This document shows, piece by piece, positions 5,603 to 6,624 of a DNA stretch of 64,000 bases. This DNA is from Shigella phage A2. Positions within the stretch are counted from its first letter, which is position 1, and every line of letters starts with the position of its first letter. The notes below the pieces were generated by a model. That model worked only from the letters and a program-made list of their open reading frames with translations. It searched no databases and was not told the origin of the DNA. The stretch lies in the sequence record OP197928, one strand, 5' to 3'. A program made the position numbers and the translations under genes.

Positions 5603-5678
5603 TGGTCGAGGCAGTAGGGATCGAACCTACGACCTAGGACTTAGAAGGTCCTTGCTCTTCCTTCTGAGCTATGCCCCG
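5603..5678 (-). tRNA. tRNA-Arg (anticodon UCU)
   Basis: Hand-folded cloverleaf on minus strand: acceptor CGGGGCA/UGCCUCG, anticodon loop CUUCUAA, T-loop GGUUCGAUCC, encoded CCA. Confidence 0.85.
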
Positions 5679-5682
5679 TAAT

Positions 5683-5758
5683 TGGGGTGACCGATGGGAG
5701 TCGAACCCATGACTACGAGAATCACAATCTCGAGTTCTACCAACTGAACTACGGCCAC
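5683..5758 (-). tRNA. tRNA-His (anticodon GUG)
   Basis: Acceptor GUGGCCG/CGGUCAC, anticodon stem CGAGA/UCUCG, loop UUGUGAU, T-arm AUGGG-UUCGACU-CCCAU, discriminator C + CCA; no encoded G(-1). Confidence 0.75.
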
Positions 5759-5872
5759 ATTAATATCTACTCCAACAATCATGATGTCTTCACACGAAAT
5801 TAAGAGAAGAGTGATCAGTTCAACCCCTATAATCGCGTCAAGTAGATATTAATGTGACAGTTGTCACAAATT

Positions 5873-5947
5873 TGGCGGACGTGATAGGATTCGAACCTAT
5901 AACCAATCGCTTAACAGGCGATCGCTCTGCCATTGAGCTACACATCC
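5873..5947 (-). tRNA. tRNA-Asn (anticodon GUU)
   Basis: Acceptor GGAUGUG/CACGUCC, anticodon stem AUCGC/GCGAU, loop CUGUUAA, T-loop UUCGAAU, CCA encoded. Confidence 0.8.
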
Positions 5948-5951
5948 AAAT

Positions 5952-6038
5952 TGGTGGGGAGTGGTGGAGTCGAACCACCCGAGTCGCAATGACAATGGAT
6001 TTACAGTCCACACCGCTACCTCTACGGGATAACTCCCC
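5952..6038 (-). tRNA. tRNA-Tyr (anticodon GUA), class II with long variable arm
   Basis: 87 nt; acceptor GGGGAGU/ACUCCCC perfect, anticodon loop CUGUAAA, T-arm GGUGG-UUCGACU-CCACC, CCA encoded. Confidence 0.8.
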
Positions 6039-6051
6039 TTAATTCTTAATT

Positions 6052-6126
6052 TGGTGGCCCTGGGTGGAATTGAACCACCATCTGGCGATTATGAGTCGCT
6101 TGCTTGAACCTTCCAGCTACAGGGCC
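6052..6126 (-). tRNA. tRNA with CAU anticodon (Ile2/lysidine type as in T4, or elongator Met)
   Basis: Acceptor GGCCCUG/CAGGGCC, anticodon loop CUCAUAA, T-arm GGUGG-UUCAAUU-CCACC, CCA encoded. Confidence 0.8.
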
Positions 6127-6127
6127 T

Positions 6128-6203
6128 TGGTGCTGATTGACGGAATCGAACCGCCGACCTTCTCATTACAAGTGAGTTGCTCTACCTACTGAGCTAAATC
6201 AGC
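6128..6203 (-). tRNA. tRNA-Thr (anticodon UGU)
   Basis: Acceptor GCUGAUU/AAUCAGC, anticodon loop CUUGUAA, T-loop UUCGAUU, CCA encoded; 1-nt spacer to neighbour. Confidence 0.85.
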
Positions 6204-6208
6204 AAAAC

Positions 6209-6298
6209 TGGCGGAGGCGATAGGATTTGAACCTATGAGTCGCCGGAGCGACTGCCGGTTTTCAAGACCGGTGCATTAAACCACTCTGCCACGCCTCC
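6209..6298 (-). tRNA. tRNA-Ser (anticodon UGA), class II
   Basis: 90 nt; acceptor GGAGGCG/CGCCUCC, anticodon stem CCGGU/ACCGG loop CUUGAAA, long variable arm, T-loop UUCAAAU, CCA encoded. Confidence 0.85.
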
Positions 6299-6300
6299 AG

Positions 6301-6374
6301 TCTCCATACAAGGATTTGAACCTTGGACCTCCTGATCCCAAATCAGGCGCTCTACCAAACTGAGCTACACGGAG
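6301..6374 (-). tRNA. tRNA-Pro (anticodon UGG)
   Basis: Acceptor CUCCGUG/UAUGGAG (two G-U pairs), anticodon loop UUUGGGA, T-loop UUCAAAU; CCA not encoded. Confidence 0.8.
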
Positions 6375-6384
6375 TAAATTAAAT

Positions 6385-6458
6385 TGGAGCGGATAATGAG
6401 AATCGAACTCACATCATCAGATTGGAAGTCTGAGGTAATACCATTATACGATATCCGC
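6385..6458 (-). tRNA. tRNA-Gly (anticodon UCC)
   Basis: Acceptor GCGGAUA/UAUCCGC, anticodon loop CUUCCAA, T-loop UUCGAUU, CCA encoded. Confidence 0.85.
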
Positions 6459-6463
6459 AAATT

Positions 6464-6550
6464 TGGTGCGAGAAGTGGGACTCGAACCCACAAGGAAATC
6501 ATTCCGCAGCATTTTAAGTGCTGTGCCTTTACCAATTTGACCATTCTCGC
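6464..6550 (-). tRNA. tRNA-Leu (anticodon UAA), class II
   Basis: 87 nt; acceptor GCGAGAA/UUCUCGC, anticodon stem CAGCA/UGCUG loop CUUAAAA, long variable arm, T-loop UUCGAGU, CCA encoded. Confidence 0.85.
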
Positions 6551-6551
6551 G

Positions 6552-6624
6552 CTGGGAATAAAGGACTCGAACCTTTGCATCCTGGAATCAAAATCCAGTG
6601 CCTTACCAACTTGGCTAATTCCCA
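6552..6624 (-). tRNA. tRNA-Gln (anticodon UUG)
   Basis: Acceptor UGGGAAU/AUUCCCA, anticodon stem CUGGA/UCCAG loop UUUUGAU, T-loop UUCGAGU; CCA not encoded; first gene of the array (promoter-proximal). Confidence 0.85.

Follow-up and report, generated by a model that had tools for sequence, protein, structure and literature searches.

The closest described relatives of the locus considered here are the tRNA gene clusters of the T-even coliphages, which differ in their tRNA complement and in the presence of segB, a gene coding for a homing endonuclease. The SegB of phage T4 cuts preferentially within the gene for tRNA-Asn of T2L, whose tRNA cassette is replaced in mixed infection (Brok-Volchanskaya 2008, PMC2330249). 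The two phages further differ in tRNA-Ser, with the terminal CCA being present in the T2L gene and absent from that of T4 (PMC2330249). Phage tRNAs have also been tied to escape from host defenses that act on tRNAs. On one hand, Septu and the PtuAB of retron-Eco7 cut the variable arm of tRNA-Tyr (PMC13096335; PMC11555353). The T6 tRNA-Tyr, which is detected on Northern blots and is functional (PMC13096335), restores infection under Septu in a dosage-dependent manner (Chihara 2026, PMC13096335); further, T2, which has a tRNA-Tyr, is resistant to Septu, whereas T4, which has none, is sensitive (PMC13096335). On the other hand, the PARIS protein AriB cuts tRNA-Lys, tRNA-Thr(UGU) and, secondarily, tRNA-Asn beside a UAAU motif, and the tRNA-Asn of phage T5 contributes to rescue from this system (PMC12409363). 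Here, we analyze an array of 11 tRNA genes at positions 5603–6624 of a 64,000-nucleotide (nt) stretch of DNA from Shigella phage A2 (record OP197928), hereafter the window. We consider it likely that this locus is a T4-like tRNA operon in which the tRNAs additional to the T4 set would act as a back-up against defense nucleases, with the exchange of cassettes shaping the array.

We detected tRNA genes with ARAGORN and checked them against the Rfam tRNA covariance model (RF00005, gathering score 29 bits). On its minus strand, the region 5603–6624 holds 11 tRNA genes; ARAGORN returned exactly the genes, coordinates and anticodons that had been claimed in an original prediction made from the sequence alone. 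All 11 reach the Rfam gathering score, ten of them at 59–74 bits and tRNA-Tyr at 30.3 bits against the cut-off of 29, and in every one of the ARAGORN structures the anticodon lies within the 7-nt loop of the cloverleaf. Covariance scoring, which the prediction had itself named as the test that could refute it, supports the genes for the Tyr, Asn and His tRNAs and leaves their anticodons unchanged; Tyr(GUA), Asn(GUU) and His(GUG) are indeed the extras relative to T4. The 11-tRNA array is, hence, confirmed as real. In the order of transcription, its genes are:

6551–6624, minus strand: tRNA-Gln(UUG), 67.4 bits; no encoded CCA; 88% identical to T4, with the differences all in the anticodon arm
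6464–6550, minus strand: tRNA-Leu(UAA); CCA encoded; identical to T4
6385–6458, minus strand: tRNA-Gly(UCC); CCA encoded; identical to T4
6300–6374, minus strand: tRNA-Pro(UGG); no encoded CCA; identical to T4
6209–6298, minus strand: tRNA-Ser(UGA); CCA encoded, unlike in T4
6128–6203, minus strand: tRNA-Thr(UGU); intact; 96% identical to T4
6052–6126, minus strand: tRNA with anticodon CAU, Ile2 (lysidine) type by its sequence; T2-type allele, 62% identical to the T4 tRNA-Ile and identical to T2
5952–6038, minus strand: tRNA-Tyr(GUA), class II with a long variable arm, 30.3 bits; 86 of 87 positions as in T6, 85 of 87 as in T2
5873–5947, minus strand: tRNA-Asn(GUU), 74.1 bits; identical to the T2 gene; G39 instead of U39
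5683–5758, minus strand: tRNA-His(GUG), 65.1 bits; C73, CCA encoded, T at −1
5603–5678, minus strand: tRNA-Arg(UCU); T2-type allele, 61% identical to the T4 tRNA-Arg

The encoded 3′ ends bear out the claim that Pro and Gln lack CCA: it is encoded by the other nine genes. The claimed packing with spacers of 1–5 nt, in contrast, did not hold. Going from Gln to Arg, the spacers given by the ARAGORN coordinates are 0, 5, 10, 1, 5, 1, 13, 4, 114 and 4 nt, that is, 0–13 nt plus an overlooked 114-nt gap between Asn and His (5759–5872). This gap contains a conserved structured RNA, which we call element X and take up below.

Two of these calls merit comment. First, the assignment of the CAU tRNA as a tRNA-Ile of the Ile2 type reading AUA, rather than as an elongator tRNA-Met, appears reasonable because its anticodon stem-loop, GCGACTCATAATCGC, is identical to that of E. 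coli ileX and its acceptor stem begins with GGCCC (GGCCC...GGGCC). The determinants of TilS are an ileX-type anticodon stem-loop and the acceptor stem (C4-G69, C5-G68). The same gene is annotated as a tRNA-Ile reading ATA in the record of Escherichia phage FelixPlatter. Second, the low score of tRNA-Tyr (E. coli tyrU scores 53.4 bits against the same model) looks typical of the phage tRNA-Tyr family and is no warning sign, because the functional T6 tRNA-Tyr (469–555 of the T6 sequence), which differs from it at a single position, also fails the cut-off. Failure against a covariance model is therefore a poor refutation test for tRNA-Tyr, and automated screens should be read with caution when a functional tRNA can score below the Rfam threshold. 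As for tRNA-Gln, only its anticodon arm is altered relative to the T4/T2 allele, with compensatory stem pairs and U/U rather than C/C at positions 32 and 38; these changes resemble the kind reported for tRNAs that escape anticodon nucleases.

The window can be placed by its sequence in the genus Tequatrovirus (T4-like coliphages). It is collinear with the genome of FelixPlatter in blastn comparisons at 92–97% identity, and the 1251-bp region of the array is 99.4% identical to that phage, with at least 80% of this query being covered in 259 phage records. The FelixPlatter record annotates the same 11 tRNAs, and ARAGORN yields exactly these 11 from its complete genome. The full Tyr-Asn-X-His-Arg block is present in 186 GenBank phage records, where it is 98–100% conserved and usually annotated. 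The array is, therefore, already known, and is the fullest common version of the T4-like coliphage tRNA cluster. Many T-even phages have it as their standard array, and it does not merit being reported as new.

We then compared the organization of the array with those of T4, T2 and T6. In T4 (NC_000866), the cluster occupies the same position and strand between the same flanks, and the order Gln-Leu-Gly-Pro-Ser-Thr is shared at near 100% identity. In the alignment, the two are nearly identical from upstream of Gln through Thr, save for the anticodon arm of Gln and the CCA encoded in Ser (the T4 tRNA-Ser lacks it); divergence begins inside the CAU tRNA, and identity resumes at rnaD. Thus, T4 has Ile-segB-Arg-rnaD-rnaC, whereas the window has Ile′-Tyr-Asn-gap-His-Arg′-ORF116-rnaD-rnaC, where ORF116 is an open reading frame (ORF) of 116 amino acids (aa), and Ile′ and Arg′ are just 62% and 61% identical to their T4 counterparts but nearly identical to those of T2. 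No segB ORF is found in the window, the interval between Ile and Arg being filled by Tyr, Asn, X and His. In T2 (AP018813; T2L, AJ880101), which is also free of segB, the CAU tRNA, Tyr, Asn, Arg and the 116-aa ORF are shared at 98–100%. Against this background, T2 differs from the window in that its tRNA-Thr is cut after 13 nt by a 133-aa ORF, whereas that of the window is intact, and in that it lacks a 190-bp block between Asn and Arg. This is a clean indel, at approximately 5681–5870 of the window, and the block consists of a small hairpin, the 95-nt element X and tRNA-His. Relative to T2, this block is all that the Ile-to-Arg stretch of the window has in addition. The 133-aa ORF of T2 (3711–4236 of the T2 sequence) matches no Pfam family and is mislabelled as “tail sheath monomer” in its record. 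The T6 cluster, Gln-Leu-Gly-(Thr)-Met-Tyr-segB, lacks Pro, Ser, Asn and His; its segB is mislabelled as “serine recombinase”.

As judged from these alignments, the array is a segB-free, T2-type, fully populated cassette variant and not T4 with an insertion. The original prediction, which had Tyr, Asn and His inserted between Ile and Arg, was imprecise, as everything from Ile through Arg belongs to an alternative cassette. Moreover, SegB cuts and replaces the T2L cassette, and the window tRNA-Asn is identical to that of T2, the gene with the preferred SegB site; sequence comparison therefore identifies the array as one cassette variant among several at a hotspot of homing endonucleases. Its difference from T4 would have arisen by cassette exchange around homing-endonuclease sites rather than by simple insertion. 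Related modules occur further afield: a tRNA-Tyr 96.7% identical to that of the window is found in unrelated 137–139 kb coliphages (FFH2, naswa, PMBT16), and X is found separately, between Gly and Gln, in W70 (1496–1589 of the W70 sequence), a 137–139 kb coliphage classed in the Vequintavirinae. The presence of tRNA-Tyr and X in such coliphages indicates that tRNA-array modules may be exchanged between unrelated phage families.

What might the three extra tRNAs contribute? We propose that the Tyr, Asn and His copies duplicate host tRNAs that have no alternative isoacceptor, and that, as back-up copies, they would sustain translation when the host defense nucleases cut the host tRNA. By analogy with T6, the tRNA-Tyr would counter Septu and the PtuAB of retron-Eco7: the T6 gene is 86/87 identical to the window copy (a difference of one base), although T6 has an adjacent segB and the window has none. 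The variable arm and T arm of the window tRNA-Tyr are also identical to those of the T5 tRNA-Tyr, and the 96.7% identical genes of unrelated coliphages suggest that tRNA-Tyr has been exchanged and kept. The tRNA-Asn would counter AriB of PARIS, as suggested by the U39G change that it has in common with the T5 tRNA-Asn: the motif U36-A-A-39 reads UAAG in both the window and T5, as against UAAU in E. coli asnT. In tRNA-Thr, position 40 is G in the window and C in E. coli. The Asn and Tyr copies might provide a second benefit by adding to the supply for a proteome rich in both amino acids.

Several points weigh against this proposal. First, the defense roles are carried over from T6 and T5 by sequence resemblance and analogy. 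Second, Septu also cuts the T6 tRNA-Tyr, and the escape of T6 needed SegB-driven amplification (PMC13096335); the window has no segB, and SegB-driven tandem amplification would, therefore, be impossible in cis. Third, tRNA-Asn is only a secondary target of AriB, and the array lacks tRNA-Lys, the primary target. Fourth, a minor AriB cleavage signal has been noted for tRNA-His (PMC12409363), and nothing more specific explains the presence of this gene; its charging is also uncertain because G−1 (G at position −1), the main histidine identity element of bacteria, is not encoded. Fifth, the promoter and terminator consensus scans, on which the limits of the transcript rest, do not rise above shuffle expectation.

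Among the alternatives, the one that fares best holds that the extra tRNAs only raise the supply of Tyr, Asn and His tRNAs for an AT-rich proteome replete with NAU codons, with no role in defense; we regard this as unlikely, though part of the evidence agrees with it. We compared the codon usage of 70 ORFs from the window (19,524 codons) with that of 36 annotated E. coli K-12 genes (13,341 codons). The eight tRNAs of the T4 set, namely seven with a wobble U and the CAU tRNA of the Ile2 type, follow the logic of supply well, with their cognate A-ending codons all being enriched in the phage, by 1.7–8.7-fold (AGA 8.7×, ATA 5.6×, ACA 4.1×, GGA 3.6×, TCA 3.5×, TTA 3.1×, CCA 2.2×, CAA 1.7×). Likewise, Asn (1.58×; AAT 2.7×) and Tyr (1.42×; TAT 2.0×) fit this explanation as the second and third most enriched amino acids. 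In contrast, His is the least enriched of all (0.56×; CAT 0.79×, CAC 0.29×) but is served by a phage tRNA, whereas Lys is the most enriched (1.65×; AAA 57 per 1000) and yet has none; taken as the sole explanation, codon demand fails for both. Thus, the claim that the NAY codons read by the three extras are abundant in the phage genes stands for Asn and Tyr and fails for His, and demand accounts for part of the tRNA set but not for His. Further, the phage Tyr, Asn and His copies share their anticodons with abundant host tRNAs and, therefore, add no decoding capacity, and the near-identical tRNA-Tyr of T6 is tied to escape from Septu by published genetics (PMC13096335). The codon-demand idea is, in short, half right, and the best current account of the extra tRNAs combines back-up against tRNA-targeting defense with the demand for Asn and Tyr.

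A far less probable alternative is a neutral mosaic, in which homing endonucleases and recombination during co-infection shuffle the cassettes and Tyr, Asn and His are mere passengers. Consistent with it, segB lies at this locus in both T4 and T6, and SegB converts the T2L cluster (PMC2330249). The T2 tRNA-Thr is interrupted by an ORF after 13 nt, X-His behaves as a clean 190-bp indel and recurs in another context (Gln-X-His-Ser) in other genera, and both X and tRNA-Tyr turn up in unrelated Vequintavirinae. Against it, the genes are intact, form good cloverleafs and are 98–100% conserved across the 186 records, the helices of X are kept by compensatory changes, and the T6 tRNA-Tyr has a demonstrated phenotype.

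The original prediction had also drawn attention to the GUN anticodons of the three extras, describing them as substrates of tRNA-guanine transglycosylase (Tgt), which installs queuosine at position 34. Their 7-nt loops, CUGUAAA in Tyr, CUGUUAA in Asn and UUGUGAU in His, all contain U33-G34-U35, the motif needed by E. coli Tgt, and the host enzyme could, therefore, modify all three phage tRNAs. Under an even draw from the 12 amino acids not covered by T4, all three extras would come from the four GUN families with a probability near 4/220 = 0.018, a figure computed post hoc. However, GUN is the only anticodon used for Tyr, Asn and His; what needs explaining is, therefore, why these three amino acids are the ones represented, and to call them single-isoacceptor targets of tRNA nucleases describes them just as well. 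The proposed check for queuosine-pathway genes elsewhere in the genome came back negative: tblastn with E. coli QueC, Tgt and QueA (QueD, QueE and FolE being left out of the search) found no homologue in either the window or the whole genome of FelixPlatter, with all E-values at or above 0.2, and there was no T4-like phage among the 20 phage records with a match to Tgt. The tRNA for Asp, the fourth member of the queuosine family, is absent from the array, and in related Klebsiella/Enterobacter phages the Tyr, Asn, Asp and His tRNAs lie among those for Lys, Trp, Met, Phe and Glu. Hence, while the motif itself stands, the link to queuosine is weak and not specifically supported, and it is most improbable that the three tRNAs were acquired because Tgt can act on them, for instance in order to sequester or make use of queuosine or to adjust the decoding of NAU relative to NAC.

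The only part of the locus with a claim to novelty is the cassette formed by X and tRNA-His. Its elements other than the tRNA are:

5759–5853, minus strand: element X, a 95-nt structured RNA with a three-way junction and a 14-bp closing helix, ending at −1 of tRNA-His
5854–5867, minus strand: small hairpin GTGACAACTGTCAC, at the 5′ edge of the 190-bp cassette

A hairpin resembling the latter precedes X in Salmonella phage STP4-a. The 114-nt gap folds with an energy of −33.3 kcal/mol as against −20.3 kcal/mol for shuffled sequences (z = −3.8). X is conserved in 355 phage records and is without annotation in any record examined; its carriers are members of Tequatrovirus, Karamvirus, the Klebsiella T4-like phages, Gelderlandvirus and a few Vequintavirinae. 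A pattern scan for X was positive in six phage-like metagenome contigs and gave no match in the genomes of 185,579 bacterial and archaeal species. In most cases X runs exactly up to −1 of tRNA-His, and it moves with this gene between contexts, being found as Asn-X-His-Arg here and as Gln-X-His-Ser elsewhere. No description of X was found in the literature searched.

The consensus fold from RNAalifold comprises the 14-bp closing helix, a long hairpin that distally is of two unrelated sequence types, and a 4-bp hairpin with a 7-nt loop. Over ten distinct closing helices, 97% of the alignment cells are paired, six of the 14 pairs show compensatory changes, and the covariation score is unmatched by any of 500 shuffles, with the 5′ arm having been located by best pairing, a procedure that itself favors pairing. 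In an alignment of 11 sequences that was fitted to the model, and hence leans towards structure, 94% of the cells are paired and 14 of the 29 pairs covary. In more distant phages the closing helix is retained, while the interior is wholly changed. G-U pairs are frequent in the helix and A-C pairs absent, and the covariance model of X scores 112.8 bits on the tRNA (minus) strand against 16.9 bits on the plus strand; because of both, the constraint on X is seen to act at the level of RNA. On the same two grounds, X is unlikely to be, at the level of DNA, the inverted repeat of a small mobile element. An Rfam search of the 114-nt gap with E-values up to 10 gave only chance matches (to a small nucleolar RNA, a microRNA and a long non-coding RNA) and no family that fits, and the covariance-model search rules out a known RNA family, ribozyme or tRNA. 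We also considered whether the 7-nt loop, UCAUGAU, might display CAU as a codon for the anticodon of tRNA-His, GUG, an idea dropped in view of UCUUGAU variants in FelixPlatter and two others.

A positional counterpart of X is known in T5, where stable RNA III (106 nt, annotated function unknown), which also has a long closing helix, adjoins tRNA-His on its upstream side as X does here (the pair spans 10207–10390 of the T5 sequence). The covariance model of X found no match in T5, T4, T2, T6 or the searched parts of FelixPlatter (the part bearing its own X being left out). Homology between X and RNA III is, accordingly, rejected for want of a covariance-model match, and RNA III is a positional analogue only.

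The tRNA-His gene downstream of X is itself unusual. It starts with GTGGCCG and ends with CGGTCAC-C-CCA, which gives a normal 7-bp acceptor stem, C73 and a T at −1, as against E. coli hisR, which encodes G−1. The combination of G−1 and C73 serves bacteria as the principal identity element for histidine (PMC9976931). From the identity set of the histidyl-tRNA synthetase (HisRS), the window gene thus has C73 and the GUG anticodon but no encoded G−1. Among 125 viral tRNA-His genes sampled from IMG/VR, 109 have G at −1 and 16 have T. All 16 of the latter lie in arrays of at least seven tRNAs on large phage contigs and follow structured spacers of 61–118 nt (−16 to −33 kcal/mol), as against spacers of 11–61 nt with little structure before the G(−1) genes of the array-borne subset (at least three tRNAs); this association is confounded by the relatedness of the T(−1) genes among themselves. 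The tRNA-His of T5 is also annotated with a 5′ T. No description of a phage tRNA-His lacking G−1 was found in the literature searched. We tentatively raise the idea, which we hold to be improbable as it stands, that the 190-bp cassette, with X and a tRNA-His devoid of G−1, is a functional unit, or that this tRNA-His is a decoy or non-decoding RNA rather than an ordinary substrate of HisRS. If true, large lytic phages, including T5 with its RNA III–tRNA-His pair, would share an undescribed route of tRNA-His maturation or use. For specialists, the points of interest are an unannotated structured RNA in about 355 phage genomes and a lineage of phage tRNA-His genes without an encoded G−1.

Beyond the tRNAs and X, the following features flank the array on the same strand:

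6731–6759, minus strand: promoter-like site TTGAAT-17-TATCAT upstream of tRNA-Gln, from a consensus scan; region nearly identical to T4
5236–5586, minus strand: ORF116, 116 aa, inside the tRNA operon and also in T2; phrog_3355 (E = 1.3e-53), of unknown function
5120–5239, minus strand: homologue of the T4 small stable RNA rnaD (species 2), 83% identity
4975–5113, minus strand: homologue of the T4 small stable RNA rnaC (species 1), 98% identity
4901–4924, minus strand: hairpin followed by a T run, resembling an intrinsic terminator; conserved with T4

The site at 6731–6759 is the likely start of the transcript of the tRNA operon, and the hairpin at 4901–4924 its likely end. Probably, a single minus-strand transcript that starts near 6750 and stops at the terminator near 4900 would carry the 11 tRNAs, X, the 116-aa ORF, rnaD and rnaC. 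By analogy with T4 biology, host RNase P and 3′ trimming enzymes would release the individual RNAs, and the ends of Gln and Pro would be completed by the CCA-adding enzyme of the host. At its start, rnaD overlaps ORF116 in the stop codon of the latter, and neither ORF116 nor the neighboring small ORFs matched a Pfam family. Two stretches near the operon, 2925–4339 and 7617–7850, have no FelixPlatter counterpart in the blastn comparison; they hold small ORFs without a Pfam family, including one of 187 aa at 3695–4258.

Set beside the known systems, the locus shares parts with each. The arrays of Karamvirus and the Klebsiella T4-like phages have the same unit of X and tRNA-His, with X being 82–89% identical and tRNA-His matching at 75 of 76 positions, but place it in a Gln-X-His-Ser context among 12–16 tRNAs that include Lys, Asp, Trp, Met, Glu and Phe. 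T5, a phage of another family, has about 24 tRNAs, including Lys and Asp, and a tRNA-Asn with G39 as in the window. Among the T-even phages, T4 itself emerges as one version of the cassette among several, with SegB homing having shaped them. We predict that Shigella phage A2, as is the case for T2, should be more resistant to Septu than T4, and that co-infection with a phage that carries segB should cost it the Ile-to-Arg cassette.

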